From the IMG/VR virus record IMGVR_UViG_3300024239_000354: a stretch of DNA of 64,000 nt; one strand, 5' to 3'. A program made the translations under genes and the position numbers. Shown one piece after another: positions 30,580-53,477 of the stretch. The notes below the pieces were generated by a model. It had not been told where the DNA came from. It saw only the letters and a program-made list of their open reading frames with translations, and did not search any database. Source of the stretch: an uncultured virus (IMG/VR IMGVR_UViG_3300024239_000354) (taxonomy: Duplodnaviria > Heunggongvirae > Uroviricota > Caudoviricetes). Each line of letters begins with the position of its first letter. Positions within the stretch are counted from its first letter, which is position 1.

Positions 30580-30729
30580 GCCCTCGGGGAAGTCAGGGAC
30601 GAATTATCCCCGGAAACGAATCAGCCTAACAGCCGTATCGAATTCACAATACACGATCAGCACGCACGAATAGCGCCAATGGCGCGGCTGCTATGGACAT
30701 TTTATACGAAAAATATAGAAATATGAGAG

Positions 30730-30804: not shown

Positions 30805-30812
30805 ATTTCTCA

Positions 30813-31088: not shown

Positions 31089-31314
31089 TGAAATCCCTAC
31101 TATGTAAAATTGGTTTCTCGCATGCCGCGAGCATCATATTTAGTTTGGATCGAAAATCATCCACCGAGAAACCGAAAAGGTTTATTGGATCGACAACCAG
31201 TGATCTTGGATTGCCGTGCGGGTCGCAATAGACCTCATGTACCTGAAGGTATTCCGTGGCGGACCCGTCAGGTTCGGTGTGGGTATGCTTTACGAGGCGG
31301 TAATCTTTAATCAT
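31054..31314 (-). CDS. hypothetical protein
   Basis: YRLV...VHEVY.D..G.P...M.AA..KPIL pattern. Confidence 0.65.
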   Translation of the reverse strand: MIKDYRLVKHTHTEPDGSATEYLQVHEVYCDPHGNPRSLVVDPINLFGFSVDDFRSKLNMMLAACEKPILHSRDFNGPPRKIDRSA

Positions 31315-31408
31315 GCCGCCATCGTAGGGGTGCCTGATTGGTAGGTCAATTTATTTGGGGATGGGCAGCCTAAATAAGCATCGAGGTTCGTCGTGGAGAA
31401 GATGGTTA

Positions 31409-31969
31409 ATGGACGATATCCGCCGCTACATACAGATAGTCACCGAATCTGCCTCTGGACCGGTGAAGCTCTATCATTTGACCGACAAGCCAAAATTCAA
31501 GCTCAATCCGAATTACGCCCCTGAAGACAACTCCATTGCGATTGTGCCCCGAGCGGGGCACAAAGGTATCTACCTCACGCCCAACGTTGAACCATGGGTG
31601 AACGGTCATGGATACTGGCGCCCGTTTGTAGCGGAGATATACGCCGATCCAGCGGCACTGGAACATGACCGGATTGGGCGTTGGGGCGGCGAAGTGTTCA
31701 TCCCAGCAGACCAGTTCGATAAGCTAAAAATCCAACGAATCATTCCGTTGGATGCCTATGCGCGTGAATGTTTTGGAACGCATGGTTGGATCGAACAAGC
31801 CCTTGGTGTCGAGTTCGACACCGGGAAAGAGATCACAGCTAAACCATGGGAATACCCGTTCCGAGGCTACACCTACGATAACGACGTGCGGAACATGTCG
31901 CCTGAAGAAGTGAAGCGGCTTAAACAGCATTTCAGGGTTGGGCTGAAACTTCGATTGAAGTACCAGTGA
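31409..31969 (+). CDS. ART-like late protein
   Basis: TAAATA upstream; MDDIRRYIQIVTESA leader; LYHLT...GIYLT...GEVFIP. Confidence 0.7.
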   Translation: MDDIRRYIQIVTESASGPVKLYHLTDKPKFKLNPNYAPEDNSIAIVPRAGHKGIYLTPNVEPWVNGHGYWRPFVAEIYADPAALEHDRIGRWGGEVFIPADQFDKLKIQRIIPLDAYARECFGTHGWIEQALGVEFDTGKEITAKPWEYPFRGYTYDNDVRNMSPEEVKRLKQHFRVGLKLRLKYQ

Positions 31970-31972
31970 CCA

Positions 31973-32539
31973 TTAGCCTTCGACTACCACGAACGGTTTT
32001 TTGCGCCAGCCTTCGATCCGAAGCTTGGTACCGGTTTCTACGTTTTGGAACAGGTTTCGGCGGTTGGTGGAGTCGGGAATGCGAACGAACTCGGTGCCCT
32101 GCTGTCCATCCGGGAGTGTCATTGGGGTATGAAACCGAATTTTCACACCATCCTGCACCCCTAGCGAATTGGCTCGCTTAGCGGCGTTCTGTAGGCACCG
32201 CTGACGCCAATTCGTAGCGTTGATCCATGGGATTGTCCCACGACTGTACAGTACATCAACCGGGGTAAGTTGGTTTAGAATGCGACGGGGGCAATCCGTC
32301 CATTTGGGTCCGATTGTTTCCGGGAACAAATCGAAACCAATTTCATCGAATTCTTCATTTCGACCGAGGATTTGCATGAACGCCACACATCCATGAAGGC
32401 GTCCGGGTTTGCCCATGCAAATATACGCTTCATTGTTACCGTGCATAGCAACGTCAATCACGGTGCGCCCGATAACTCGGCGGAAAAATTCGAGGTTCGA
32501 TTCTCCGAAACCTCGTGGTGTTTTGAGGCATTCTAACAT
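31973..32539 (-). CDS. hypothetical protein (DUF6927-like)
   Basis: E.IGP...DCP.RILNQLTP...NWRQRC pattern. Confidence 0.6.
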   Translation of the reverse strand: MLECLKTPRGFGESNLEFFRRVIGRTVIDVAMHGNNEAYICMGKPGRLHGCVAFMQILGRNEEFDEIGFDLFPETIGPKWTDCPRRILNQLTPVDVLYSRGTIPWINATNWRQRCLQNAAKRANSLGVQDGVKIRFHTPMTLPDGQQGTEFVRIPDSTNRRNLFQNVETGTKLRIEGWRKKPFVVVEG

Positions 32540-32642
32540 CGTTCTGACGTTTCTTGTTGCTCCGATATTACTATGTGGGATTGTGAGGCATCTGTCAAGT
32601 GTAAATAGTTACATATTTCACACATCACACTCATAAGGAGTA

Positions 32643-32942
32643 ATGCACATGTCCAATCTGATTTCATGGAAACGTGGGATGGAATTGTACGTTCAAAAAG
32701 AAGTTTTGAAATACCGCGTCCCGGATTGTAAACCTGAAATTGTTAACCTTCTTGCTCGCAATTTTAAAGGCGTGTGGGCGTATCGTTGGGATAATGGGGC
32801 ACTTGAAGTGTTGGTCGAAGACGAACCGGACATCATGTTTTTCAAACGGCTTTTTGTGAAGGATCGTCTGTATCGCCGCGATGTTCCACAAGCCAAGAAG
32901 AACGCACGTACCGCCGCATCAATGATTGCAAAGAGGATATAA
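32643..32942 (+). CDS. hypothetical protein
   Basis: TAAGGAG SD; terminator at 32944-32972. Confidence 0.7.
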   Translation: MHMSNLISWKRGMELYVQKEVLKYRVPDCKPEIVNLLARNFKGVWAYRWDNGALEVLVEDEPDIMFFKRLFVKDRLYRRDVPQAKKNARTAASMIAKRI

Positions 32943-32971
32943 GAAAAGCCCGCCGAATTGGCGGGCTTTTC

Positions 32972-33559
32972 TCAAGAAAGGGTTGTTGTCAGCAACCAGT
33001 AGAAAATGGCGACATAGGTCATACTGTGGACTAGCTGGTCAAACATGAGCGCGATGAAAAAATTATTACTGAAAATGCGTAGGCAGATCGGTGCCTTGGT
33101 GTTCGGATCGACCTCAATTTCCGACCAATGGAACTTCTTAGTCGTCACTACCTTTGCCCAGTCACACAAGTAGTGAATGATGAAATCGAACAGAGAGCAT
33201 GCAATCACCATATCAAGGGTGACTTCTACATCGAACCCCCAACTCCATAGCATAACTGCTGCACCGGTCAGCGCACCATGGATACCAGCATGAATGATCC
33301 CGCCTGGATGTCCAAACCGACCTTTGTTGAGGTATTGATAGGCAGTCTGAAGCGGACCATCCGCAATAAAATGTTTGATCATAAGGTATGCCATTGGCGT
33401 CACCAACGGCAGAACCACATCAGACCCAAACATTTGGTGTGCTGCCATAATACCGCCGACCCACACGGCAAGTACGCCCAAAATAACACCCCAAGCAGTT
33501 TTGCCGAAGGTTTCCGACAGATGCCGCAGGTCGATGGTATGAATGGGTTGGTTGGGCAT
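32972..33559 (-). CDS. DUF3307-like membrane protein
   Basis: KHFIAD..LQ...K, HAGIH, HYLCDWAK and DQLVH motifs. Confidence 0.75.
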   Translation of the reverse strand: MPNQPIHTIDLRHLSETFGKTAWGVILGVLAVWVGGIMAAHQMFGSDVVLPLVTPMAYLMIKHFIADGPLQTAYQYLNKGRFGHPGGIIHAGIHGALTGAAVMLWSWGFDVEVTLDMVIACSLFDFIIHYLCDWAKVVTTKKFHWSEIEVDPNTKAPICLRIFSNNFFIALMFDQLVHSMTYVAIFYWLLTTTLS

Positions 33560-33625
33560 GATGTGTCCTCGCATGCATGTACTAAACAGCATAAATATCA
33601 AAACAAGTTTTGGCAAGGTGTTGAT

Positions 33626-34063
33626 TTGAAAATTCTAGAAATCTATGCTGGACGCGACGTGCAAAAATTGAAATGGGCTGTTGGAAAGCAGATCAAACAT
33701 GCCACTGTGTATTCGCGCCATGATCAACAAAATAACGAGAATGAAGTTGTTTGGGTGGAGATTGATCGTCTTTTTGACGCCCTTGCCTCGGAATACCGCG
33801 ACAAGAATGATCCGGCGGTTGCTGATGGGGTTTCCCGTGCATTGGAGCATTGGGAGGATGGTGGTTGGATGGACCCTGCCCAGGTCGGTGTTTTTGATGA
33901 TCAGGTACACTTTGTGGAAGGGCGTAACCGCTTGATAGCTGCCCGCCGACAAGGGGCATTGTTTGCCCCGGTAATCGTCCCCGAGGATCAGCTTGGGAAA
34001 TTTAAGGAGCTTCTGGGGGCTGGTACCGTAACAAAGAACCAGCCTTTAACTGAGAAGCCTTAG
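33626..34063 (+). CDS. ParB/Srx-like late protein
   Basis: ATAAATA at 33591; TTG start (M)KILEIY; EGRNRL.AA...G. Confidence 0.6.
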   Translation: MKILEIYAGRDVQKLKWAVGKQIKHATVYSRHDQQNNENEVVWVEIDRLFDALASEYRDKNDPAVADGVSRALEHWEDGGWMDPAQVGVFDDQVHFVEGRNRLIAARRQGALFAPVIVPEDQLGKFKELLGAGTVTKNQPLTEKP

Positions 34064-34817
34064 GATCGACGCCGGTCCAAATTATGAATGAAAGCCGTGC
34101 CTGCTCATAGAGCATGTCCAGACCTGATATGGTACGCAGTCCGCGTTTCTGAGCGGTATGAATAAGGGGAGTTGGGTTGGGGTGGTACACAACATCCCCA
34201 ACAACGCTATCCGGGTGTATGGCGCTTAAATCAACCGAGAGCGGTGGGTACCCAGACATACCAAGACTGGTTGCGTTGATTAGAACAAGTGAACCGGTCG
34301 GGTGATAATTCAACGCAACCGCAGTTCCGTTAATTTCTGCTGCAAGGGCGGACGCAGCTTCAAATGAACGATTTGCTATTTGCACAGAATAGCCGTGATC
34401 ATAAAGTGCAAAGGCTATTGCACGAGCAGCACCACCGGCACCAAACATTACCGCTTTGTTGTGCCCCAGTTCTTTTAACAGATTGTGATAGGCAAGGTAA
34501 TCGGTGTTGTGTCCGATAGTTTTACCCTTTTGTATCACCACCGTATTGACTGCTCCAATTCTGGCGGCGGTGGGTGATAACTCATCAAGGAATGGAATGA
34601 TTTGTTCCTTGTGAGGAATGGTGACATTGAAACCTGTGAAGCGATCACGAATGAACCCGCGTACCGCCGCCCCGAGGTTTGGTGGGGTTATCTCAAACCG
34701 GCTGTAGCTACCGCAAATTTGGGTAGCGTTGAAGAATTCAGTATGGATATCCGGTGAGCGAGATTGCATCACCGGATATCCAATAATCCCAAATTTCAAC
34801 GAACGACTGGTAGCCAC
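34002..34817 (-). CDS. aroE: shikimate dehydrogenase
   Basis: GYPV..SRSP.IH, GFNVTIPHK, GAVNT, GHNTD, GAGGAARA, NATSLGM, DVVY.P and GLDML.EQA. Confidence 0.95.
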   Translation of the reverse strand: MATSRSLKFGIIGYPVMQSRSPDIHTEFFNATQICGSYSRFEITPPNLGAAVRGFIRDRFTGFNVTIPHKEQIIPFLDELSPTAARIGAVNTVVIQKGKTIGHNTDYLAYHNLLKELGHNKAVMFGAGGAARAIAFALYDHGYSVQIANRSFEAASALAAEINGTAVALNYHPTGSLVLINATSLGMSGYPPLSVDLSAIHPDSVVGDVVYHPNPTPLIHTAQKRGLRTISGLDMLYEQARLSFIIWTGVDPKASQLKAGSLLRYQPPEAP

Positions 34818-35158
34818 GGAAGTTTTTCCCCGCCGCCATTGATATAGTCGCGCAATTCACGCAAAAATTTCTCGGTCGATGGGAGCAAGTGGCAATAAAT
34901 CTCGGTCGGGTTGATGTGCTGGTCGAACATCATTTTGACGACCGGGGTGACCCACGATGCCAATTCCTCGGTGCGCACTTGATCCCTGAACTCAAAAAGT
35001 GCCTCTTGGAACTCTTTCCGCTTACTTTCGTCCATATGGTCGAGACTGATCGCCAGCAATCGCAGAAGGATTTCTGTCTTGAGCCGGGATTCATTCGCAA
35101 CGCGGTCGCGGACTCCCTTGACATCCTCAACCACGCGGTCGCTGATCACCATGACCAT
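34796..35158 (-). CDS. hypothetical protein
   Basis: 120-aa ORF in a minus-strand operon. Confidence 0.65.
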   Translation of the reverse strand: MVMVISDRVVEDVKGVRDRVANESRLKTEILLRLLAISLDHMDESKRKEFQEALFEFRDQVRTEELASWVTPVVKMMFDQHINPTEIYCHLLPSTEKFLRELRDYINGGGEKLPWLPVVR

Positions 35159-35161
35159 GGA

Positions 35162-35509
35162 TCACCCGATCATTTTGCGGGCGGTAATTAGCACGCCCTC
35201 TTCGTTTTCGGTGATGATGTAATCATCAGGCGATTGGCGCACCATGGCGCTGCCATTGAGGGTTGGTTCCCCTTTGTTACCGAACATCGTTGATGGGCTA
35301 TGGAATAACCCTACCTCGGTATTGAAGGTGGTTGTTCCCCCATCACGAGCGCGTTGTACGCGGCTGGTGATCTGCACTTCGGTCATTGGTACATTTTCTG
35401 AACCAATGAACATGCGGAAACTCTCGTAAGTGAAATGTTCGGCGTCGGCACTCACGTAGACGAGGGTTCCATCGGGGTGTCGGAACAGATATTCAGGGCA
35501 TCTGTTCAT
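35162..35509 (-). CDS. hypothetical protein
   Basis: MNRCPEYL..., ATGA-coupled. Confidence 0.65.
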   Translation of the reverse strand: MNRCPEYLFRHPDGTLVYVSADAEHFTYESFRMFIGSENVPMTEVQITSRVQRARDGGTTTFNTEVGLFHSPSTMFGNKGEPTLNGSAMVRQSPDDYIITENEEGVLITARKMIG

Positions 35510-35931
35510 GGCTTTTGCACCATCGGGGGCTGCTTTCGAAGATCGGACACGTCCTTGGTCACGTCTTTTACGGCAGCGGCCAGCGCCAAGATTTTGTTCG
35601 CCAATTCCTCGTCCACGCTGGGGGTAAACTGACGGCACATTTCGTTCTCGGTGCTGTTGTTCCAGCCCTTAACGGCGCAACGCGCGGCGACGGGATTTGT
35701 GCCGCCCTTGATCAAGTTCTCGATTGCAGTATTGGCAGCCATGTCCCGTTCGGCTTCCTTGATACGCAAGGCATGCTTGCGTTCATCTTCTTTTTCACCA
35801 TAGGGCATGTTTTTGATCTGGCACCCGGAAATCGAGAGGATCAACACCGAAACGACAATGGCGAGAGCATTGACCACGTATTTCGTGATCTTCACCTCGC
35901 TCGATTCCGTCACCTGTTCTTTGGCAGCCAT
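35506..35931 (-). CDS. membrane-anchored hypothetical protein
   Basis: Hydrophobic segment ending ISGC; AGGA SD. Confidence 0.65.
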   Translation of the reverse strand: MAAKEQVTESSEVKITKYVVNALAIVVSVLILSISGCQIKNMPYGEKEDERKHALRIKEAERDMAANTAIENLIKGGTNPVAARCAVKGWNNSTENEMCRQFTPSVDEELANKILALAAAVKDVTKDVSDLRKQPPMVQKP

Positions 35932-36015
35932 TTTCCTACCTACATGATTCGATACTACCTGACAAATGGTATATCCCATTGCCAAGTAATGAGCAAGCAA
36001 ATGTGGAGGGCGGGG

Positions 36016-36035
36016 CGTGAATACAGATCGTGGTT
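36016..36035. repeat. 20-bp perfect inverted repeat, partner at 42314-42333
   Basis: CGTGAATACAGATCGTGGTT versus AACCACGATCTGTATTCACG. Confidence 0.95.
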
Positions 36036-36576
36036 TTGGGGCGTATCACGGGTCTTGGGGCGCATCCTTCATAACCCTTGTGCTGGAGTCCCGGAGGTCT
36101 TTACCATTCCAGCGGCGATACGCTTTCGCATTTGCAAGGCTAGATCACCACACAGCCGTAACCAGCGGCTTACCCTGTTCCCCGTTGTCGAACTGGGCTT
36201 TACCCGCACCCGCCGCCTATAGCTCGTCAGCGCATCGGCAAGATGTGTTCCCTGAGGTCATGGGAGGTATTTTGCGACGGTCGATAACCACGAGGGCAGC
36301 CCGTCGAAAATGAGCGGGGGACCGTTGATCGCGCAACCACCAAGGCGTGGTGATCTAGTATTGTAAATGGGGCGGGCTGGGACTAGCTCTCATTATCCCT
36401 GCCCATTAGCATCAGTGTTATCGCACCGAGAGCAAGCGCCAGGGTACAAGTGGAGTTGCCCTGGTGCTGCATAGCAGCCAATTAATCCACTATCAGCCAG
36501 CTTGCCTGACAGCACCGTGTCCAGTCCTCTAGAGGTGGGTCGATCAACCCGACCAAACACAGGATCGACTTGCAGA

Positions 36577-36653
36577 TGATGTGGGACAGGATTTGAACCT
36601 GCGATCTCCCGATGCCGGGCGCGCTGTCCGATACTCTACGCCACGCCACATCA
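36577..36653 (-). ncRNA. tRNA-like RNA with a shrunken anticodon loop and no CCA
   Basis: TGATGTGG/CCACATCA acceptor, GCAGG-TTCAAAT-CCTGT T arm, CCCG-GCAT-CGGG arm. Confidence 0.6.
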
Positions 36654-37186
36654 CCATTCTGGAAAGGATTGGGTGACCCGTGAGAGGGGCTGGTCAAGTC
36701 ACCCGATGTCTTCATCAAGACCCTTAGCTTTACCCTAGCCGTCGTTCCATCGTGCCGACGTTCAAACCACGTTCCGGTACAGCCTCTCCCGAGCCGTCCG
36801 CGTGTCGCATAGACTGTCTATGGTGTTTCAACCACTGATTAGCTTTGGTAGATGTGATCGGGTCGCACTCGGACGTTTCCCCAGCCCACGGAGGCTGCAT
36901 CTGTCTACTCTTCCCGAAGGAAGCCATCGGATCACAGTTGCTACTTCTGCCAGTCACATGCCCTTCCCCTAGCTCCTTGCGGTCACCAGGGTACCCTTTA
37001 CCGACAACCGCTTTCGTAGCGTTCGTCGTTGACTTCGAAGCCGAAATCCTTGGCAGTGGTGGCGCCTACCCGCTCACCTACAGCTTCGCACGTCCTTCCG
37101 TGCCGCCACATACAGCCACCTTCCCCGAAGGGAAGTATCCTCTGCCTAATAAGGCGTCAGTGACCGGGCATCAGTCGCGCAGCAAT

Positions 37187-37265
37187 TGGTTCGGGGGTTG
37201 GGATTTGAACCCAAAGGCTCTGCAACCTGAATGCAGCGCGTCTACCGCTTCCGCCACTACCCCGA
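37187..37265 (-). tRNA. atypical tRNA with CAG anticodon (Leu-type), no long variable arm, bulged acceptor
   Basis: CTGCA-TTCAGGT-TGCAG arm, TTGGG-TTCAAAT-CCCAA, ends in ACCA. Confidence 0.6.
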
Positions 37266-37304
37266 AGGTTTTGAGTTCAACCATTTTGGGAACTCGGAAT
37301 TTTA

Positions 37305-37381
37305 ACCCAAGACCGGACTTCCACCGGTACCTCCGGGCTTCCCGCCCGGCGCTCTCCATTCCCTGAAATGGTTGCCGACTC
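37305..37381 (-). ncRNA. tRNA-like RNA
   Basis: CCGGG-CGGGAAG-CCCGG arm followed by an ACCGG-TGGAAGT-CCGGT T-like arm. Confidence 0.4.
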
Positions 37382-37844
37382 TTACAGGGATGTGCGTTCG
37401 GCTTTGAGCTACATGGGATTCGAAATGGCATTTATCAGGATGGGCAGGGTTCGATACCTGCTTGCAGGGGGAACTTTTTTAACATGCCAATATTGGTTAG
37501 GGTCTGACCTGACCGGTCCCTACTTGGTCCCCATAATCCGCGCTTCAAACCTATGGTCTAGCTCTGGCACTGGAATTACTGCTCTGTGCAATTCAGCGCG
37601 TGTCCTTCCACGCTACCATCCAGATAAATGTCATTATTGGGAAGTTTTACCTCATTTCCGCAAGGGATACGCAATCGTCGGTCAGTGCAGCCATGCGTAT
37701 CTACGAGTCCCTGACCGCTCAGATACTCGCACTTTCATTTGGTCTATCATCGGCTGTTGCAATTGGGGCTACCCATTACTGGGTGTGAGCCAAAGTCATA
37801 TCCGACAACGTTAAGGCAATCGACCTTGAACTTCCCGAAAGGCG

Positions 37845-37902
37845 TGCCTGACCATCGCTTGCGCTAGGTTTCGACTGGTGCCAACAGTCATCATCAGAGG
37901 CA
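37845..37902 (-). ncRNA. hammerhead ribozyme
   Basis: UGCCU-CUGAUGA-U-GACUG(UUGGCAC)CAGUC-GAAA-CC...GG-UC-AGGCA; predicted cleavage after GUC at 37850. Confidence 0.8.
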
Positions 37903-37909
37903 ATTAAAA

Positions 37910-37996
37910 GGGACGGGCGGGATTCGAACCCGCGAAGGCTTTCGCCAGGAGTACCGCGCGCAGTCTCCCCGCTTAGATCACTTGCATACGCATCCC
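37910..37996 (-). ncRNA. class II tRNA-like RNA with a remodelled anticodon arm and no CCA
   Basis: GGGATG/CGTCCC acceptor, GGC-GAAA-GCC variable arm, GCGGG-TTCGAAT-CCCGC. Confidence 0.6.
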
Positions 37997-38237
37997 ATGG
38001 ATGGCGGTGGAGAACATAGGCGCCTATGTTCTCCACCTTCATGTTTAGCCACCTATCCTTCGTCCCAAGTCGAAGGGTACCCGTGGGCTATCGGGGTACT
38101 TTGTTCCACCGTCGCACTTGGGGCTGGCGACGGAATTATGCAAGGCAGGTTATCATCCATTTTGCTACGCGCTATGTAAAACTCCCCACGTGATGACGGT
38201 GGATTGTTTTTGCACGTATGTGATGCTTATTCCTTCA

Positions 38238-38308
38238 TGCCTTGGTGAGACTCGAACTCACAACCTCCCATCCGCGACGGGTGTTCTATCCAGTTGAACT
38301 ACAAGACA
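38238..38308 (-). ncRNA. tRNA-Arg-like body with a 5-nt anticodon loop and no CCA
   Basis: GTAGTTCAACTGGATAGAAC D arm; CCCGT-CGCGG-ATGGG; GTGAG-TTCGAGT-CTCAC. Confidence 0.6.
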
Positions 38309-38329
38309 TTACGGAACCTTACAAATTGG

Positions 38330-38634
38330 TGGCGGAAGGGATGGGATTCGAACCCATGGTGGGTTTGCACCCACGGCGGTTTTCCTTACACACTTCGGCT
38401 TTCGCCGCCCCAGTATGGGTTTGTGGTCTGGACTTTCTCTTCACCATGGCGGCTTTTGCCGCTTTAGATGCCTGCCGTCAAGTCTCTACACCTTCCTGAT
38501 CACTCAGGCTTGGCTCGGGATTGCCATGTCTTGCAACGAAGGTTTCCCCGAATTTGACAGGTTCTACTCCAAGGGTTTCCCCAAGGGCACTCGATAATCA
38601 AGACCGCTACCTTAAACCACTCGGTCACCCTTCC
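38330..38634 (-). tRNA. tRNA-Ser(UGA) interrupted by a group I intron
   Basis: Exons 38600-38634 and 38330-38384 join to give GCGGT-CTTGAAA-ACCGC, long variable arm, G73, CCA. Confidence 0.9.
38385..38599 (-). mobile_element. compact group I intron (215 nt, no ORF)
   Basis: TCAAATTCGGGGAAACC, GGCAATCCCGAGCCAAGC, AAGGTGTAGAGACT and AAAGTCCA core elements; U.G pair in P1; terminal G. Confidence 0.9.
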
Positions 38635-39668
38635 GTACTTCAGAATTCTTCACATCGTCAGAAGCCGGGATTTGGCTCACCACCCGGAACCCGTCGCTAT
38701 CGCGCCGCTCTTTTGCCATTAGGTTGAGGTACAACCGACGATGTTTTGGGATTATCGTATCCCTTCCGCGTCGAGCCTTGTCACGGACGCCATGCTATCC
38801 TCGTTGCCGTATTGGATTTCGCACTGTCATCCACGACAAACGACATTGAGCTTAGGTCTGAGTGCTACCTGCTGCTCGGTTATGGGAAGGCGGCGGGCTT
38901 TGCACCCCGCATTTTGGCTATTCAAGAACCGTGTCTTTCTTGCGACTGTCTAGTGCCCCAGCGCAGCCGTTAGACGACCCTTCCCGTGATCCTGTCATGT
39001 TCGCGACCATGACAAGGATGGCTATGTACCAAGTGCCAGAGGTTGCGCCGCGCCCGGTTCCACCGTGGTGGGAGGGTGGCACTTGGTACAACTGGATGAA
39101 CCCGACCCCAACATCAACGCGATGGGAGATCACATAAAGGCAGCTAGAAGCCGGGTTCAATTTTGTGGGAGCAGCCAAAACGGCGCTCAACCGAAAAGAC
39201 ATTCAGAGGATCAGGGTGGGTGCGAAACCACTTACCGGTGTTAGATGCCGGTGTACGAAAGCTTACGTACCTCCAATCCTCTACAGCCCCCTCTACTTGA
39301 ATGACTGGTCCTGGCGGTTCCGATGCGCTTCGGTACCGTTACTCCCAATCATTTTCCACGTTTCCAATCTCGGTCCATCAGGTTGTTCAAGGGTTCCCGA
39401 AGGTGCGCTCCCTTGTTCTTCCCTTCACTCAGAGGAGTCTAACGTGGCAGGCGTAGTTATCGGCTGTATTTCGAGTGTTGCCTACCTACACTCAGGGTGA
39501 AATCAAAATCATGGTACAGGGGTGCGTTTCCCCGGCGCAGCTTGGCACAATGACCACTAGCCCCCGTGGTGCCGCGTCGGACTATGATGATGGTGGGAGC
39601 AGCCATTGAAGGCGCTCAACCGATGATGGTTTTTGAACTGTGATAAGTAGCAAAATCCACCCGTTAAT

Positions 39669-39744
39669 TGGTGCTCCCACCCAGACTCGAACTGGGGACA
39701 TAGGCATTTAGAGTACCCTCTTCTACCAACTGAAGTATGGGAGC
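39669..39744 (-). tRNA. amber suppressor tRNA (anticodon CUA)
   Basis: GCTCCCATACTTCAGTTGGTAGAAGAGGGTACTCTAAATGCCTATGTCCCCAGTTCGAGTCTGGGTGGGAGCACCA; 76-nt cloverleaf, loop CTCTAAA. Confidence 0.9.
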
Positions 39745-40030
39745 TTGGTTCCCGCAGCATATCCGAAAACATGGGGTCATGCCGGTTTCCCTGACCCTTT
39801 CGCCCATCCTGTGTCAACCGCCGCCGAAGCAGCGATCACCCATTCTCCACCCCTTGCGAGGCTTCACTGTTTGGACAGCGATGAACTCCAACCACGCCTT
39901 CCTGCTTTCACAGCGAGCCAGCAATGGTGTCAATTTTGATTGGATACCTCTGTCACGGCTTTTTGACATCCGTCCACCGTGCCCTTCTCTTGAAGGGTTG
40001 TCCGCACCATACGATGTGTGGTGGATAAAT

Positions 40031-40133
40031 TGGTGACTGTGGGTCGTACTGCGCATCAATGGGTTGTCGCCATCCATTCAACCGACGTTGAATGCCCACC
40101 AGCAAGGCTACCAGCACCTTTTCTCCCACAGTC
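40031..40133 (-). ncRNA. CCA-ended structured RNA, non-tRNA core
   Basis: GACTGTGGG/CCCACAGTC stem followed by ACCA. Confidence 0.5.
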
Positions 40134-40172
40134 TTCGCCCCTTCCGGCTTTACCGCTTTCTTGAGGGCAATT

Positions 40173-40256
40173 TGGTGGAGGTTGTGGGTTGCATAACTTC
40201 CCACCCCGTCGTTGGCATACGCCCTACGCCGTCCGCTTCATGCTACGAAAACCCCC
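40173..40256 (-). ncRNA. Ala-acceptor mini RNA resembling an isolated tmRNA tRNA-like domain
   Basis: GGGGGTT/AACCTCC-A-CCA with G3.U70; GTGGG/CCCAC T-like stem; no anticodon arm. Confidence 0.5.
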
Positions 40257-40966
40257 AAAATGAGTAGCACCAGTTTTCGTCTGTTTTGCGCTGGGGTTTT
40301 TGGTCGATACCCCACTCTTGTTTTGTGTTCTATAACCTTATGTGGGGCGACGGGGTTTTACCGTGCCTTGTGGCGTTCCACGGCTCTTACCGTTTAACCG
40401 TCCATTCCAGCAATCGTGCGCACTCATGCTGTTCAAGTCGGTCAACGTCCTACTCGTTTCACAGGGAGCGACCCTGTTAATCCTTTCGGTCTAAGCTACG
40501 CCCCGCATAAGGTTACAGAGATAACGGTAGGCTGCTCAGCTATTGGCATACTACCGTTAATTATCGACGGTCACTGTTTCGCTCGCATCATGTGCGATGG
40601 ACTTTCACCATTTTGCCGTCGATGGGTCGTAATATGATGGTTCTGACTGCCTCTCTTTTTGGGCGGTGGGCATGCATCACCTTGGCAGTCCGTTTTCTTG
40701 CTACGTTTTCGAACCATAGAAGCCTTCCACTTCCGCGCGGCATCGTCATTACGGCGACCCGTTGTGCCGTACTCGCGCATCGTCATAGCCGCCCGCCTAA
40801 GCCGTTGGCTCGGATTTGCTTTCTGGATTGGATTGTGTTCATCGTTCTAACCGATGCCAACTGGACCTTCCGATTTAAACCAGCCAGCGAGCAGTGTGTC
40901 GCCACTTAGTTCCAGTGCCCGTGCATGATCCGGGTGGGTTTCACAGCCCCCTCAACACAAACTTAT

Positions 40967-41149
40967 TGGTTTCCAGCATCAGAGTTGAACTGATCCTTAC
41001 CCTCGATCACTACCCCATCCCTGAACAAACTGTGCGTCAGTTTTACGCGCAGAAACGGATCATGATGTCATCGGGGCGTGCTTTCCTCGGTGGATATACG
41101 CACGATCCACCTCATTGGAAATTACTACCTGTCTACACTACTGCTGGAT
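40967..41149 (-). ncRNA. enlarged tRNA-like RNA with a pseudoknot
   Basis: TCCAGC/GCTGGA acceptor, ATCAG-TTCAACT-CTGAT T arm, ACCA end; loop CGTGC can pair with downstream GCACG. Confidence 0.5.
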
Positions 41150-41428
41150 TACGGCGGGGATGATCCCCAAAACTTTCTAGACAACCCGGTGGTATGACCA
41201 CTATTTGTCCTTATCGGGGGCAGTGAGGAACACTCACCGCAGAAAACACTAACCTCTAAGTGGTTATTTGGACAGTCCAGGCTTGATTTTTGTGCCTTAC
41301 GAGTCGAACGTAAGTGCCCTAACACAAAACACCCTTCCGGTTTGCAACCCAGTTGGGATTGAGGCGCCTCTACCTGCCACGACTGCTAAGCCATGACGCC
41401 TGAACTGACCAAATAACCGAAGAAAGTA

Positions 41429-41533
41429 TGCAGGGGTGGACTTTCACCACACCACGCGCACTGCGCGTTGCTCTCCCCGTGGATAAGACGGGTCTGGCTC
41501 TTGGTATCCCGCGCCATATTAAGCTACCCTGCA
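41429..41533 (-). ncRNA. tRNA-like RNA with expanded D and variable arms
   Basis: TGCAGGG/CCCTGCA acceptor; CCCGT-CTTATCC-ACGGG; GTGG-TGAAAGT-CCAC. Confidence 0.5.
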
Positions 41534-42414
41534 ATTCCGTTTGCCCGGTGGATGGGGATTTGGACCCCACTTTCTCCCTTTCGGGTGCGTTACCTATTCG
41601 CCTCTCACTAGCAGATGTTGTTAGTGGCACGGTATTAAGCCGTATCCGCCGCTATCTGTGTACATCAGCCATCTGCATCAAGGTTCCCTGGTCCAGCCTA
41701 ACTGGTTGACAAGGGTCTGTCGGACAAATTGATTGGTGATCATCACCAAATTAAGATCGGCAACCCAAAGGCGTGGTGTTGAACCAGCAGATTGTCGGGG
41801 GTTTCCCGGCAATCCCTCCATTGCATTAGGTCTTTCGGATGACACATCCGAAGCAGCACCTTCGCTGCTCTGGTCGCAGATGCGACCATTTCAAAACTCG
41901 TTATGTTCAAGGATCGGCAACCTACGTAGAGGATTCGAACCTCTGCTACCCACCGTTTGGGTGAGTGTGCCACCGCAGCACTTACGAAGGTCTTTCGGAT
42001 GGTACCCTCCGAAGCAGCGCCATTTACTGCTCGGATCATGCTCGTGTATCCGTCGATACAAAAACCCGATCCTTGAAGATAACGAGTTGCTTGTTATTTG
42101 CGGGCAGGCGACTACTCTTCTCTGAGCTACCAGACCAAAAGGACCGGGCATAGGTTCCGTCCAAAGACGTGTCTATACGACCTTTCGCCTGCCTGCAAAT
42201 AACAAGCGTGTTGGTTGGGTGCCGCCACAGTTTGTATGCCAATGGTATGGCTTCTATGGCTCGAACGGAATGTCCGTCCGGTTGGTGCCGTTGTTGGTAC
42301 CAACTGGCACCCCAACCACGATCTGTATTCACGATGTCAATCAGACCGTTGATCTGACCGGGGCTGGTTTCCCAACCCGAAGAGCGTAGCGGTTCTCACC
42401 GCTGTGGAGCTTAG

Positions 42415-42443
42415 AATATAACACGCTGCGATTGCGGTGTCAA
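42415..42443 (-). promoter_or_regulatory. sigma70 promoter P2 of the ncRNA operon
   Basis: TTGACA-17 nt-TATATT. Confidence 0.85.
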
Positions 42444-42499
42444 CCCCTTGCTCCGTTGCCACTGTATCGTTTTGCGACATCAGCGGCGTCGATGAGTGG

Positions 42500-42528
42500 A
42501 CTATACAAGCCAGAAGTGGGTCTGTCAA
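42500..42528 (-). promoter_or_regulatory. sigma70 promoter P1 of the ncRNA operon
   Basis: TTGACA-17 nt-TATAGT. Confidence 0.85.
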
Positions 42529-42565
42529 CAGGGGTACGAAAATTTTTTATCCGCTAAATAACCCT

Positions 42566-42979
42566 ATGCGCTACAGCGAAATCCTAGATGAAGATTTGCG
42601 TACCCGAGAATTTGATTGGCCTGCCTGGGCACGCAATCGTCGGCGTAACTACGTTTTGGTTGATATTGATCCGGTAGCCTATGTCGAAGCCTTTGACAAA
42701 TACCAACCGGACATGGCAGTTCGATTTGATTATTATCACGACCATGAGAACGACTATCACCACCGTAAGGTGGATCGGTTGGTTCAATGGTTAGAAACAA
42801 ATCCCACGGTTCCCGTGGAAACCCCTGATGTAGGGCTGGATGACCGGGGGAACCCATATACGACTGACGGACGCCATCGACTGTATTGGTTTGCGAAGAA
42901 TGGAATACGGCGGATGAAGGTGATGGTGCCGCGCAATCAAGCTAAGAAGATTGCGCAGCTATTCCCACCACAAGAATGA
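42566..42979 (+). CDS. ParB/Srx-like late protein
   Basis: CTAAATA 5 nt before MRYSEILDED; TDGRHRL motif. Confidence 0.7.
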   Translation: MRYSEILDEDLRTREFDWPAWARNRRRNYVLVDIDPVAYVEAFDKYQPDMAVRFDYYHDHENDYHHRKVDRLVQWLETNPTVPVETPDVGLDDRGNPYTTDGRHRLYWFAKNGIRRMKVMVPRNQAKKIAQLFPPQE

Positions 42980-42980
42980 T

Positions 42981-43199
42981 CTATTCGATCATGTAGAGCC
43001 GCTTAATACCATCCATGCACTCACCGGGGCGGCTAGATGAAATGCATTTCGTTGCCATGTCGATGAATTGCTCCTTAGACACCGTAATTTTTTGCGGGGG
43101 TTCGTGTGTGGCAACGTAGATCACAAACCCGATCAGGGATGTTGCCACGCCTGCCAGTGCCGCCATCCGTATTGGACCTAACCGACGAAATATTTCCAT
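42981..43199 (-). CDS. small membrane protein
   Basis: MEIFRRLG... with one TM segment; GAGG SD. Confidence 0.6.
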   Translation of the reverse strand: MEIFRRLGPIRMAALAGVATSLIGFVIYVATHEPPQKITVSKEQFIDMATKCISSSRPGECMDGIKRLYMIE

Positions 43200-43200
43200 T

Positions 43201-44139
43201 CTATCGATCCTCGAACAGATTGGACACTGACATTTCGTGATTGATTCGATTGATCGCTTCCGCCAGTAACGGGGCGACCGTGATCTGTCGAATTTTCGCG
43301 CAACCATTCACTACATCAGTTGCTTTAATCGAGTCAGTAATTACCATTTCTGACAGAACTGAAGAACCAATGCGCTCAACCGCAGTACCAGACAGCACAC
43401 CATGGGTGATGTAGGCGGAAACTGAACGGGCACCCTTTTCAAGCAGTGCAGAGGCAGCATTGCACAGGGTACCAGCGGTGTCTACGATGTCGTCAATGAT
43501 CACGCAGTCTGCACCTTCGACGGTTCCGATCACGTTCATGACTTCACTGATGTTGGCTTTCTCGCGGCGTTTGTCGATGATCGCCAATTCCGCGTTATTG
43601 ATACGTTTCGCCAAATCGCGGGCACGCACCACACCACCCACATCTGGTGATACCACTACGGTATCACCCCGGAATTTTTCACGGATGTCACGGGCGAACA
43701 GTGGTGCTGCAAACAGGTTATCCACCGGAATGTTGAAAAAACCTTGAATTTGCATAGCGTGCAAGTCGAGAGTCAAAACACGGTGTGCGCCAGCGGTGGT
43801 GATAAGATCGGCAACCAATTTTGCGGAAATTGGGGTGCGGGGACCGGGTTTGCGATCCTGCCGGGCATACCCGTAATAGGGAATCACCGCCGTAATGCGT
43901 TTGGCGGATGACCGCTTCAATGCATCTATGGTGATTAATAGTTCCATAAGGTGTTCATTGCACGGGTGTGACGTGGATTGAACCACGAACACTTCGTTGC
44001 CACGGACATTCTCATTAATCTCAACGCGGATTTCCCCATCGGAGAACCGTTTGATCTCTGAATCTACGATGGGTATATCGAGATAATTGCCGATTGCCTT
44101 TGCTAGAGGCAGGTTACTGTTACATGAAAGAACCTTCAT
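43201..44139 (-). CDS. prs: ribose-phosphate pyrophosphokinase
   Basis: [34 protein letters not shown] and [10 protein letters not shown]. Confidence 0.98.
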
Positions 44140-44175
44140 TTTGCACCCCAATGGAAAGGCATATTGCCTTATATT

Positions 44176-44769
44176 TCAAATTCTGTTTCGCCAGTGATAG
44201 ATTAGGCGATTGATCTGGCGGACTACGTGGGCTTTATTCCATCCCGAATGGATGATGATGTCCGCCAAGCGATTGCGTTTTTGTGTGGAAAGTTGTCGGC
44301 TCTCGAAAAATTTGAAATTGTCCAGTGTCATACCAGGGCGCGAAAGGACGCGCTGCTGCTGGATGTTGCGCGGGGCAGTTACGGAGAGCGTAAAATCACA
44401 AATGGTTTCCCAGCCCATTTCAAATAGTAACGGTACGTCGAGAACTACGATGGGGGTATGCCGGGCACGATGGCGACCAAGGAAGCGGTTGCGTTCCACA
44501 ACGAGCGGTTGGTTGAAGATATCGGCGAGGATGTCCAGAACCTTTGGGTCTTTCTGAGCCATATCCCGAAGGACCGGGCGCAAAACTCGGTTGTCGTTGG
44601 ATATAGCTTCCGGGAACCGATCACGGATGGTTGTGATCACGGATGGACATTTCATTAAGTAATGAACGGTGGCATCTGCATCAAATACCGGGATGGATTT
44701 TCTCCGTAACATTTTGGTTACTGTCGATTTCCCACACCCAATTCCGCCAGTGAGTCCGATCACTTTCAT
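44176..44769 (-). CDS. coaE: dephospho-CoA kinase
   Basis: IGLTGGIGCGKST, DAD and DVPLLFE. Confidence 0.95.
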   Translation of the reverse strand: MKVIGLTGGIGCGKSTVTKMLRRKSIPVFDADATVHYLMKCPSVITTIRDRFPEAISNDNRVLRPVLRDMAQKDPKVLDILADIFNQPLVVERNRFLGRHRARHTPIVVLDVPLLFEMGWETICDFTLSVTAPRNIQQQRVLSRPGMTLDNFKFFESRQLSTQKRNRLADIIIHSGWNKAHVVRQINRLIYHWRNRI

Positions 44770-45065
44770 CGTCTGCGCTTCCTACTCCGTTCGGAACTAT
44801 CCTTGTGGGAAACATAGAAGTGTGGGGGTTTTGTTTTAACCCATTCCACGAATTTCTGCATTTCCTCGTTTTCAAGGATACGTTCCGGTGTGTGATAGTA
44901 TCTCAGAAGTTCGCGCTCTGTAAAGACTGCATGTATTTTATTATGGCAGAGACGATGAAGGAGTGCCGTGTCCTTGCCTTTGAAGGTCTTCGGCTTCCAA
45001 TGATGTTCGTTTGTGGTGTCCGCTGGCATTGGACGACCGCAAATCGGGCAGACCGAATCAGTCAT
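44766..45065 (-). CDS. small HNH endonuclease-family protein
   Basis: CPICGR...EHHWKP...LHRLCHNKIH. Confidence 0.85.
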   Translation of the reverse strand: MTDSVCPICGRPMPADTTNEHHWKPKTFKGKDTALLHRLCHNKIHAVFTERELLRYYHTPERILENEEMQKFVEWVKTKPPHFYVSHKDSSERSRKRRR

Positions 45066-45339
45066 TGACACTTTTCAGGTACCGCGTTACCGCCTGAATA
45101 CGAGCAAGGGCAACGTTTTTCCAGCACCGTTTTTCATCCATCCCAACTTTACTGGGAAGAATAACGCCAGACCCAAGGAGTTTATTGTTTGCCGTCTTGC
45201 GGACGGGATCATTCAGTGCGGATAAGGCGCCTTGAAGATTGGTGATGATTTCCTCGAACCGCGCTTTTTCAATGAAAGGTTCATCTTTAATCGTGTCACG
45301 GATCGAAATTAGAGAATCAATGGCGTTTCCAATGGTCAT
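45058..45339 (-). CDS. hypothetical protein
   Basis: 93-aa ORF, ATGA-coupled. Confidence 0.65.
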   Translation of the reverse strand: MTIGNAIDSLISIRDTIKDEPFIEKARFEEIITNLQGALSALNDPVRKTANNKLLGSGVILPSKVGMDEKRCWKNVALARIQAVTRYLKSVND

Positions 45340-45647
45340 TTCATTACCTTCACATTCAAGGGGTACTTCTGGTTTCGCGCCAAACTCATCGTCTCGGTAG
45401 CCTTTGTTTCGGCAATTTCAAACGGATAGGTACCAGCAACCCCGTTACCTTTCTCATGGATGCGCAGCATTAACGTCGAAGCAGTGTCTTCGGAATGTCC
45501 GAAAATGTGCATTAGGACATGAACGACGAATTCCATCGGAGTGTAGTCATCGTTGAATACGACAACCTTGAACAAGTCCGGTGTAGGAATCTTGATCTTC
45601 GTTTTGGTGTTCGCTTTTTGCGATGGGCTTAGCTGTGTTCCGGGCAT
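45336..45647 (-). CDS. clpS: Clp protease adaptor ClpS
   Basis: NDDYTPMEFVV, ML.IHEKG, EIAETK and YPL. Confidence 0.95.
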   Translation of the reverse strand: MPGTQLSPSQKANTKTKIKIPTPDLFKVVVFNDDYTPMEFVVHVLMHIFGHSEDTASTLMLRIHEKGNGVAGTYPFEIAETKATETMSLARNQKYPLNVKVMK

Positions 45648-45648
45648 T

Positions 45649-46263
45649 TTATTTGGTCTGTGTGTCGTGAACGATTTGGGTAGCGCCACCAAACAATACG
45701 TCAATAACACTCCTGCACCGCTCATCTAACGGACCTGTGAGGTGGATGATGTTGTCCAGCTTGTGAAGCCGCGTAAACGTTATCAGCATGTGGTCGTCAA
45801 GTTGGTTGATGTCATCCTGGGTTTGGTACCGAGTACCGTCTTTCAGGATATTCTTATTGGCCTTGTAAGTTTCTTCCTTATCGAGCAGGAAGATGAAGTC
45901 ATAACGACGCAAATAAAGGTCATCAAGCAGGTGTTTGTACATATCAGCAAGCACAAGGCGCTGCCGAGCGTCATTGTTGTCTGCATAAAGACATGCGTAG
46001 AAGTACGGCGTCAGGGTGCCTGAATCGGTGATGATATAATCTACCGCATCAGGTACCGAATCTTCGATTCGACGCTGGTTTTCTAGGGTGCGGTATTGTT
46101 CCCATATATTCTTCATGGGACCATGGAGATTTATATCAGTACGAATCCATTCTGTAATGAGTTCGGCATTGATATGGCGCTTTTTCAGTGCCGATGTCAC
46201 ATCCAGTGTTAGGGTGGACTTACCGGAACCTGCCGGTCCAATGAAAGCGATTCGTTTAGTCAT
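45649..46263 (-). CDS. NadR/Ttd14-like P-loop ATPase/kinase
   Basis: RIAFIGPAGSGKST, ITEW.R, IITDS and YDFIFLL. Confidence 0.8.
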   Translation of the reverse strand: MTKRIAFIGPAGSGKSTLTLDVTSALKKRHINAELITEWIRTDINLHGPMKNIWEQYRTLENQRRIEDSVPDAVDYIITDSGTLTPYFYACLYADNNDARQRLVLADMYKHLLDDLYLRRYDFIFLLDKEETYKANKNILKDGTRYQTQDDINQLDDHMLITFTRLHKLDNIIHLTGPLDERCRSVIDVLFGGATQIVHDTQTK

Positions 46264-46388
46264 GTGCAAGCCCCTTTGCTTGGGCTTTGTATAACATCAC
46301 TGTAAAATACGGCTCAATAAACTTCTGGACAAAAAGAAAAGGGGTTGGTGAAAGACCAACCCCTTTCTATGGCTACACAAGTAAGGGA

Positions 46389-46916
46389 TTACTTGAGTTT
46401 CTTCGGCTCTTTAGCCGTAATATCGGCTTCGATGACTTGGCCAGCCGCAGTAATCCCGATTTTCTTGGGCTTGCGCTCTTCGGGAACATTCCGGAACAAG
46501 TCAATTTCAAGAATGCCATTGACCATACGGGCACCAGATACTTCGATGTACTCTGCTAATTGAAAGGTGCGCGTGAAATTACGCGAAGCAATACCCTTGT
46601 GGATGAATGTCCGTTCGGTGGTATCGGCTTGTTGCTTACCTTCGACGGTCAGCTTACGATCATGTTCGGTGATCTCGATGTCGGATTCTGAGAACCCGGC
46701 AACCGCAATCGAAATGCGGTACTGGTCTTCGCCCAACTTCTCGATGTTGTAGGGCGGATACCCGTGTGGGTCCATTACGGTTCCGGTGTCTTCAAATAGA
46801 CGGAACAACGGCTCGTAACCGATAGCGGCATTCACCAAGCGGTTCAGGGTCTTATCGAGATTGGTGGTGTTGAGAGTAAGGGTGTGCGGTAACGCACGGG
46901 CGTTGTAATTAGTCAT
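46389..46916 (-). CDS. small heat-shock protein (IbpA/Hsp20)
   Basis: YPPYNIEK, IAVAGF, HKGIASRNF.RTFQL and NGIL.IDL. Confidence 0.95.
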   Translation of the reverse strand: MTNYNARALPHTLTLNTTNLDKTLNRLVNAAIGYEPLFRLFEDTGTVMDPHGYPPYNIEKLGEDQYRISIAVAGFSESDIEITEHDRKLTVEGKQQADTTERTFIHKGIASRNFTRTFQLAEYIEVSGARMVNGILEIDLFRNVPEERKPKKIGITAAGQVIEADITAKEPKKLK

Positions 46917-46995
46917 AGTACCTCCTTCAAAAGCAAGGTCGTTGTAGTTGGCCCCTCGCGGGCACCAGATCAGGAACCTCTCATGAGCATTCCTG
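46917..46995 (-). promoter_or_regulatory. ROSE-like RNA thermometer 5-prime UTR
   Basis: Three hairpins; the last, ACCUU(G)CUU-UUG-AAGGAGGU, pairs UUGCU with the SD; TATAAATA at 47000-47007. Confidence 0.65.
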
Positions 46996-47100
46996 AACCT
47001 ATTTATACTTCGTCCGCCGAGATAAAACCAAATTTAATTTCGTTCCCAACGACGTAAATACTTCTCAGTTATTGATAAATGCATCAGGAATAGTGCATAA

Positions 47101-53476: not shown

Positions 53477-53477
53477 T

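Follow-up and report, generated by a model that had tools for sequence, protein, structure and literature searches.

Phage tRNA clusters are well known, and in phage T4 the tRNA region gives rise to tRNAs and two further stable RNAs from one polycistronic transcript that is processed by host RNases. A second point of comparison is the control region of bacterial ribosomal RNA (rrn) operons. In the parts of PMC10250234 drawn on here, boxB, boxA and boxC follow in this order just after promoter P2, boxA is described as the key element, and in the current model it keeps the leader fixed at the polymerase, which lets boxC pair with the emerging trailer; the leader-trailer helix of more than 17 base pairs (bp) is essential for 16S rRNA, and that of 23S rRNA has 27 bp. 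Here we describe a 6.6-kb non-coding block in a stretch of 64,000 nucleotides (nt) from an uncultured virus of the Caudoviricetes (IMG/VR record IMGVR_UViG_3300024239_000354), below called the window. We read the block tentatively, with slightly less than even confidence, as a polycistronic stable-RNA operon whose transcript would be cut at double-stranded stems and at tRNA-like punctuation, with a helix between its two ends serving as leader-trailer stalk.

The feature is real and unusual, and the analogy with rrn operons appears reasonable in layout, the mechanism being a proposal. To our knowledge there is no precedent for a 6.6-kb phage block that holds RNA genes only and in which tRNA genes take up only about 8%. 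What is new relative to known tRNA clusters is the size, the small share of tRNAs and the nested, end-paired modules inside a bracketing helix; a limited literature search found no phage tRNA array with a boxA, a leader-trailer helix or a non-coding RNA operon. The block resembles T4-type clusters in that it would encode polycistronic tRNAs together with non-tRNA RNAs. However, it is several times larger, and T4-type clusters lack its low tRNA share, its nested long stems and its bracketing helix. Phage CcrBL9 (28 tRNAs) and the huge phage LR756501 likewise carry dense tRNA arrays without such stems: in the tRNA island of LR756501, gaps free of open reading frames (ORFs) reach 2.6 kb, and there are no stems of at least 21 nt and at least 85% complementarity within a few hundred bases. 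The window is itself part of a very large phage, with a 601-amino-acid (aa) protein that shares about 40% identity with tail proteins of Caulobacter and Brevundimonas phages of 280-320 kb. One study has the same DNA in metagenome runs from soil and from the subsurface.

The non-coding block, its leader and its terminal repeat

The original prediction placed 6.3 kb without a credible coding sequence at 36016-42528. This holds for the interval named, and the actual gap is slightly wider, reaching from 35934 to 42565 between the ATG of a minus-strand gene (35933) and that of a plus-strand ORF (42566). The gap is truly non-coding. Its longest stop-free frame in the standard code has 179 aa, reading through any single stop codon opened no gene-sized frame, and none of the 79 stop-free frames of at least 50 aa matched Pfam at E<=0.01. 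Median values of the period-3 signal are 0.79 for 20 windows within the gap and 4.27 for 188 windows beyond it (Mann-Whitney p=1e-10). The minus-strand RNA, with G 28.7, A 25.7, C 25.0 and U 20.6%, also differs in composition from three gene blocks of this phage, whose sense strands have A 27.5-29% and G 23-25%. All genes identified in the block lie on the minus strand, and the figure of about 8% of the gap for the tRNA genes includes an intron.

Two predicted tandem promoters face into the block on the minus strand, as the original prediction had proposed, and each matches the sigma-70 consensus at 11 of 12 positions: P1 (42500-42528, TTGACA-17-TATAGT) and, 85 nt downstream, P2 (42415-42443, TTGACA-17-TATATT, with TG before the -10 element). 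A scan of the whole 64 kb for sigma-70 promoters gave 11 sites with at least 10 of 12 matches, four of them with 11; these four are all on the minus strand (42528, 42443, 18686 and 13915), and the two ahead of the block form the only tandem pair, which is the strongest promoter pair in the window. Within the block no minus-strand promoter scores above 9 of 12, and the minus strand has one weak terminator-like site. An A/T tract (42539-42550) at about -57 to -46 of P1 resembles an UP element by eye, and it sits where we take the UP elements of rrn P1 promoters to lie. The two remaining 11/12 promoters (18658-18686 and 13887-13915, minus strand) have the same TTGACA-17-TATAnT form, and a plus-strand tRNA (18820-18891) lies near the former.

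The predicted GCGGT-GAGA-ACCGC hairpin is found directly after P2, at 42403-42388; with one more pair it reads AGCGGT-GAGA-ACCGCT and has a GNRA loop, and it is boxB-like by position only. It is followed by the boxA-like stretch CGCTCTT (42380-42386), which is unpaired in the local fold, by a second GNRA hairpin recovered in the tetraloop scan (GGGTTGG-GAAA-CCAGCCC, 42361-42378), and, 46 nt past CGCTCTT, by the first arm of the terminal repeat. The order after the second promoter is that of an rrn leader (boxB hairpin, boxA, helix arm), apart from the spacing. For comparison, in the leader of Escherichia coli rrnH the two promoters are separated by about 110 nt and followed, in this order, by a hairpin region, TGCTCTTTAACAA and a stretch containing GTGTGGG, the last two of which we take to be boxA and boxC. 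The phage CGCTCTT and TGCTCTTTAACAA have GCTCTT in common, a likeness of six letters only to a species that may not represent the host. The minus strand of the block has GCTCTT a single time and the two strands of the window (128 kb) have it 28 times, so that a chance match in a 75-nt leader has a probability of about 1.6%. The boxA candidate originally put forward, TGATTGACATCGTGAAT at 42343-42327, is present in the leader as stated; however, it overlaps the 5' arm of the terminal repeat and is a weaker candidate than CGCTCTT at 42386-42380.

The inverted repeat expected to pair the ends of the transcript is confirmed. Its arms, 36016-36035 and 42314-42333, are perfectly complementary over 20 nt and extend to 27 nt at 89% (36016-36042, the trailer arm, and 42307-42333, the leader arm). 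When the window was shuffled 30 times, the longest perfect repeats of this kind measured 14-17 nt, all of them shorter than the terminal repeat. The 20-mer has only its two sites in the window even when three mismatches are allowed (0.01 expected), and the duplex energy is -46.5 kcal/mol. The repeat lies within 75 nt of the start and at the very end of the 6.6-kb block, with its trailer arm 83 nt ahead of the next minus-strand start codon; no terminator or promoter was found between that arm and the next gene. The flanks can thus pair over about two helical turns, and the 20-27 bp of the phage arms are similar to the 27 bp of the 23S helix and the more than 17 bp of the 16S helix in the cited parts of PMC10250234.

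Despite this layout the block is not an rrn operon, since it contains no rRNA: no rRNA family of Rfam was matched at gathering score in the whole window or at E<=1 in 35500-43000. The comparison with Rfam, which the original prediction had named as a check, did recover tRNAs and Intron_gpI, whereas no known large RNA appeared; at E<=1 the block matched neither GOLLD nor ROOL nor another large phage-associated RNA, and no tmRNA or Y-like RNA. There was likewise no riboswitch in the block according to Rfam and no tmRNA according to ARAGORN. An RNase P RNA, suspected by eye from GGTGAAAGTCC and a second stretch, was rejected: it had no Rfam match at E<=10 and no blastn match to E. coli genomes, and its best local alignment to pieces of rnpB scores 32 versus 30-38 in ten shuffles.

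tRNAs, tRNA-like folds and stem-closed modules

Four tRNA genes were identified, all on the minus strand. With a score of at least 29 bits to the Rfam tRNA family as the threshold for a canonical tRNA, the three intron-less genes pass, and the fourth, for serine, was called by ARAGORN with introns allowed; ARAGORN also calls the other three. The gene at 39669-39744 (60.7 bits, CCA encoded) has the anticodon CUA of an amber suppressor and is nearest to phage tRNA-Lys genes (75-78% identity in blastn against phage records). TAG terminates 9 of the 65 ORFs in the window, where we saw no TAG-interrupted gene; this tRNA may be used in other parts of the genome, or it may counter a host defence. A 32-nt element (TCGGTTGAGCGCC, 5-6 nt, GGCTGCTCCCAC) occurs twice on the minus strand near this gene, at 39592-39623 and 39165-39194, 428 nt apart, and the copy at 39592-39623 is complementary to the 3' end of the CUA tRNA over 21 nt (81%). 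Further along are tRNA-Arg(GCG) at 38236-38309 (47 bits), which, unlike its three neighbors, has no encoded CCA and whose anticodon is presumably unusual for bacteria, and tRNA-Leu(CAG) at 37187-37265 (40.4 bits, CCA encoded).

The tRNA-Ser(UGA) gene (38330-38634, CCA encoded) carries a group I intron of 215 nt (38383-38597). The intron scores 56.7 bits to Intron_gpI against a gathering score of 50 and lies in the anticodon loop of a tRNA that is complete apart from it; the intron-less form, with 38382 directly next to 38598, is seen in metagenome contigs from other organisms and confirms the exon borders. This placement is that of known group I tRNA introns, and relatives occur in huge phages, among them the tRNA-Leu(UAA) intron of LR756501. 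However, the intron explains only 215 nt of the block. Further group I introns, suspected at about 40600-40900 and 41430-41530 from short words in common with the Ser intron, were rejected: Rfam gave no match at E<=10, and by hand the supposed P7 strand forms a local 7-bp hairpin of its own. Besides the intron-bearing tRNA-Ser, the phage encodes a SerRS. In LR756501, a 735-kb uncultured phage, the 2.6 kb at 9513-12142 are free of frames of at least 120 aa and contain only the tRNA-Leu(UAA) with its 205-nt group I intron, which is related to that in tRNA-Ser(UGA), leaving about 2.3 kb unexplained.

Relaxed ARAGORN settings add five tRNA-like folds (36577-36652, 37909-37996, 41289-41382, 41426-41514 and 41919-41991) whose anticodon loops are unusable or odd, and all five fail the Rfam thresholds. 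The fold at 36577-36652, called as 'Gly-CCC', reaches 26.7 bits to tRNA against a gathering score of 29. The cloverleaf at 41919-41991, called as 'Phe-AAA' with the loop CCAAACG, reaches 20.6 bits to tRNA-Sec against 47, and the other three have no match. The call at 37909-37996 belongs to a tRNA-like end at 37909-38066 on the minus strand, which combines the T arm GCGGG-TTCGAAT-CCCGC with an acceptor-like stem of 6-7 bp and is preceded by a perfect 14-bp hairpin (38006-38037); an 18-nt piece of this region resembles a tmRNA 3' fragment at 17.7 bits, with a gathering score of 47. T-loop words (GTTCRANYC) are about twice as frequent in the window as expected (23 versus 10.8 +/- 3.3), and 10 of the 12 in the block are on the minus strand. 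Folds of this kind serve as punctuation in mitochondrial transcripts and recur in mascRNA and in bacterial YrlA. The phage folds are similar in that cloverleaf or acceptor/T-arm structures with unusable anticodon loops would be embedded in a longer transcript, and one of them lies inside a long end-paired stem, as in YrlA. They differ in that Rfam matches no such family and a search of the window ORFs with Pfam found no Ro/Rsr-type protein.

The block is further marked by long stems. The window has 111 inverted repeats, and of the 25 longest, seven have at least 21 nt and at least 85% complementarity. All of these fall in the block; one is the terminal helix, one is the 14-bp hairpin at 38006-38037, and five close modules of 119-241 nt, all given here as read on the minus strand. 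M1 (42089-42207) has a 23-bp stem (96%) around 73 nt and a fold z of -8.3. M2 (41895-42088), with a 23-bp stem (96%) around 148 nt, contains the cloverleaf at 41919-41991 and abuts M1 without a spacer; the joint fold of the two has a z of -9.96. In M3 (41262-41418) a 26-bp stem (85%) encloses 105 nt with an acceptor/T-arm-like minihelix (z = -6.2 for the minus strand and -4.3 for the plus strand), in M4 (40329-40519) a 21-bp stem (90%) encloses 149 nt (z = -5.3 and -3.8), and in M5 (36129-36369) a 23-bp stem (87%) encloses 195 nt (z = -2.5 and -4.3). The stem bases of M1, M2 and M3 have a GTTAT...ATAAC theme in common, and that of M3 (GTTATTTG...CAAATAAC) resembles that of M1. Otherwise the modules are unrelated in sequence to each other and to the rest of the window, with a single direct similarity of 45 nt. 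This similarity (82%) links 41828-41870 and 41988-42032 on the minus strand, one inside M2 and one just after it, each with two small hairpins followed by CCGAAAGACC.

The modules recall the intervening sequences of 23S rRNA, which, in the parts of PMC4990558 and PMC8708148 used here, are stem-loops that RNase III excises without re-ligation. The proposed parallel is one of discrete inserts of 100-250 nt with long closing stems that vary between strains and sit in the precursor of a stable RNA. The phage modules are, however, not within an rRNA, and their excision is proposed by analogy.

Two smaller features are oriented. The word GGTGRAAGTCC, which forms a hairpin NNGG-TGRAAGT-CCNN with a seven-base loop, has three matches in the window (0.07 expected), all on the minus strand of the block (41438-41448, 40599-40609 and 37315-37325), and each copy has a different stem (GTGG/CCAC, ATGG/CCAT and CCGG/CCGG). 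Tetraloop hairpins number 17 on the minus strand (12 GNRA and 5 UNCG) and 8 on the plus strand (7 and 1), with 4.4 +/- 2.0 GNRA hairpins in 200 shuffles. A wider family for the hairpin motif was rejected: GGAGAGC-N18-28-GGTGRAAGTCC has 37 matching stretches in IMG/VR, close to a rough chance estimate and mostly duplicates in other sequence, and the two hairpins are absent from all 37. The original prediction had spoken of a payload of tRNAs and unknown structured RNAs. The four tRNAs stand, as about 8% of the block; the remainder holds much sequence that folds well locally, and that it acts as RNA is suggested by the features around it.

Strain variation, relatives and genomic context

A second strain is found in two DNA runs of the same study, and it differs from the window in whole segments. 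Positions 36045-36367, which correspond to M5 and 84 nt, are replaced by 15 nt, with 36044 joined to 36368, and 39031-39105 are replaced by 4 nt. A 313-nt joint that goes back, from 39471 to 39159, lies between both copies of the 32-nt element. On the outer side of the trailer arm the second strain has six substitutions at 35951-35989, lacks 3 nt at 36007 and has one further substitution at 36011. The 27-nt arm, which falls exactly between these changes and the replaced inner flank, is kept except for one base at 36018; with that base lost, the helix would consist of 17 bp, a bulge and 2 bp. The differences at 39031-39105 and 41728-41743 were discarded as support for the folds, as they are not clean changes at hairpin tips.

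Parts of the block also occur in another habitat. Two small RNA libraries of a different study (X5 and X6) contain seven and six contigs on the block, each with 0-16 differences, at 37639-37837, 38097-38305, 38693-39002, 39286-39458, 40319-40495, 40639-40818 and 41500-41803; they cover 10 and 9 of 30 bins of the block, respectively, and the pieces are 90-100% identical. Runs with pieces at this level of identity come from wastewater and from the subsurface. Close relatives of these stretches therefore exist elsewhere and occur in RNA preparations, which is no proof of transcription. Several of the contig ends fall in palindromes, where assemblies break, and for this reason we did not use the ends or the uncovered parts as signs of discrete RNAs.

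No relatives turned up in the searches made. In blastn against 50,697 phage records only the tRNAs and the intron had matches, and megablast with 30000-50000 had none. Searches for IMG/VR loci through neighboring proteins gave nothing usable (the PRPP synthetase led to three loci at 23-28% identity). A metagenome scan with the PRPP synthetase, a poorly chosen query, returned 80 bacterial loci of at most 68% identity, none with any part of the block. Neither IMG/VR nor the species genomes contained an exact match to 20-21-mers taken from the helix arm, a module and the leader.

The surrounding genes may point to a program of translation takeover, to judge from their families in Pfam and PHROGs, and we count this context for the operon. 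The window encodes SerRS (3068-4471), a second class II aminoacyl-tRNA synthetase with an HGTP anticodon domain (9501-10793), PTH2 (53051-53521), S21 (58081-58308), IF3 (59377-59940), ClpX (60089-61357) and ClpS (45336-45725) as well as Hsp20. Housekeeping-type genes (shikimate dehydrogenase, PRPP synthetase and dephospho-CoA kinase) flank the block at 33278-35933 and 43201-44769. The divergent neighbor at 42566-42979 (plus strand) encodes a DGRHR-type stretch without a Pfam match, and the sole homologue of its product among 5.8 billion proteins is the protein itself. A homing-endonuclease-like gene with matches to PHROG endonuclease/HNH families and with DUF4379/DUF723 repeats lies 4.5 kb from the block (47101-48384, plus strand).

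Possible readings of the block

From these features we infer how the operon that we tentatively favor might work. Host sigma-70 polymerase would start at the two tandem promoters and transcribe about 6.4 kb of untranslated RNA, and transcription would probably continue into the downstream genes. The primary transcript would contain tRNA-Leu(CAG), tRNA-Arg(GCG), the amber suppressor and tRNA-Ser(UGA), the last of which would first splice out its group I intron, together with about five tRNA-like folds unable to decode and several folded modules. RNase P and RNase Z would cut at the tRNAs and at the tRNA-like punctuation, and the near-perfect helices of 21-27 bp would be the targets of an RNase III-type nuclease that is specific for double strands. 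The outermost helix would pair the leader with the trailer over 6.3 kb, bracket the array and sever it from the downstream mRNA. An untranslated transcript of 6.4 kb would need to escape Rho; the leader hairpin and the single-stranded CGCUCUU may recruit antitermination factors of the NusB/NusE type, which would protect the RNA from Rho and keep the leader close to the polymerase until the trailer has been made.

The operon reading draws support from the non-coding nature of the block, the tandem promoters, the concentration of long stems, the terminal helix that surpasses all shuffles, the rrn-like order of the leader and the contigs in RNA libraries. The oriented features (tRNAs, T-loop words, GGTGRAAGTCC and tetraloops) lie mostly or wholly on the minus strand, and the trailer arm is retained in the second strain while 323 nt beside it are replaced and its outer flank is altered. 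That the stems act as RNA is likewise suggested by the orientation of the other features, by the tetraloop counts and by the position of the arms.

Several observations weigh against the operon. The long stems are almost purely Watson-Crick, and over ten stems the G-U pairs number 4 in the minus and 6 in the plus reading; stems of this kind, without strand-specific G-U pairs, would serve a role at the DNA level equally well. The plus-strand folds of M1, M2 and M5 are equal to or better than the minus-strand folds, and in 150-nt windows of the minus strand the mean z is -0.73 inside (43 windows) and -0.87 outside (33 windows), which places local folding not above that of the coding flanks. In the second strain the trailer arm has lost a base without a compensating change, since the leader arm is identical in both strains. 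None of the collections searched yielded a relative that could lend a helix the support of covariation. The contigs from the RNA libraries may be DNA carry-over. The span of 6.3 kb over which the ends would have to pair is about twice that of 23S rRNA, and the match to the E. coli boxA is limited to GCTCTT with its chance probability of about 1.6%. Finally, the 46 nt between the boxA-like stretch and the helix arm exceed the 18-19 nt between boxA and boxC reported for enterobacteria in the cited parts of PMC10250234.

A more specific version holds that the block is an rRNA-operon look-alike without rRNA, in which a Nus-recruiting leader and a giant stalk-and-loop would allow RNase III and RNase P/Z to release tRNAs, mimics and structured RNAs for translation takeover. 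We regard this version as doubtful, and the original idea that the phage has copied rrn architecture to mass-produce and process a payload is likewise an inference. The likeness to rrn operons lies in the layout, from the tandem promoters through the hairpin and the GCTCTT stretch to the helix arm, and tRNAs inside a long untranslated RNA product would be a further likeness. The block differs from rrn operons in having no rRNA and no second boxA inside it, and in the spacing, span and short boxA match given above.

Alternatively, the block may be a fast-evolving tRNA island in which decayed tRNAs, intron remnants and hairpin-bounded insertions have accumulated; the stems and the terminal repeat would then be footprints of recent insertion or of duplication and inversion at the DNA level, and the RNA other than tRNA would for the most part be without a function of its own. 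We consider this unlikely, although several observations agree with it. The two strains differ by whole modules, the joint between 39471 and 39159 suggests a duplication, and the five tRNA-like folds, with Rfam scores of 20.6-26.7 bits where there are any, look like degraded tRNAs. Near-perfect stems without strand-specific G-U pairs are what young repeats would show, local folding does not rise above background, no homologues were found in the collections searched, and the relative CcrBL9 packs its 28 tRNAs densely without such filler. Against this reading, the terminal repeat sits at the ends of the block and is kept while its flanks change, and strong tandem promoters feed the block. The modules share no sequence apart from the 45 nt and the stem bases, unlike copies of a spreading element, the strand-specific motif occurs three times with different stems, and pieces of the block are 90-100% identical in another habitat.

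A further possibility, which we rate as improbable, is that the RNAs are made as in the favored operon and that the stems, instead of being cut, protect the modules and the array from exonucleases or aid their folding. The paired ends of 6S RNA, of Y RNAs and of tRNA acceptor stems offer a parallel, and in each module of the phage block the 5' and 3' ends are paired. The part of PMC10250234 on the 16S leader-trailer helix, which describes it as needed independently of RNase III, agrees with such a role, whereas 21-27 near-perfect base pairs are a textbook RNase III substrate according to the part of PMC6582327 consulted. The present data cannot separate protection from cleavage.

The weakest explanation, which we think has little more than a slim chance, makes the 20-27-bp repeats DNA recombination sites, so that inversion of 36043-42306 would place the antisense strand behind P1 and P2 as in the invertible G segment of phage Mu and C segment of P1, or makes them the terminal repeats of a mobile cassette that brought in the RNA genes. 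As in those phages, a few kb behind a fixed promoter are flanked by inverted repeats of 20-30 bp; here the repeat encloses the payload but not the promoters and the leader, its 20 perfect base pairs include no G-U pair, and module content varies between strains. However, the payload consists of RNA genes and not of tail-fibre genes, and among the window ORFs scanned (Pfam; PHROGs for 27 ORFs) there is no recombinase, invertase, integrase, resolvase or transposase. The inversion at the repeats that the original prediction had named as a contrary outcome was not seen either: the contigs of four metagenome runs show neither an inverted form nor a joint that changes strand at the arms, and in two of the runs (X3 and X4) contigs from DNA are collinear across both arms, although contigs can hide rare forms. 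A miniature or transposase-less cassette would have the repeats, as here, but no flanking direct repeats mark a target-site duplication (TGATTGACAT on one side versus CCCCGCCCTC on the other), and there is no further copy of the arm in the window, in IMG/VR or in the phage collection.

If the block proves to be a DNA-level structure or an accumulation of debris, it would be a curiosity of phage genome turnover. If the operon reading is correct, phages can borrow the transcription and processing logic of host rRNA for RNA cargo of their own. The block would then offer several new structured RNAs and tRNA mimics for study, and it would provide a natural test of the distance over which a leader and a trailer can still pair.

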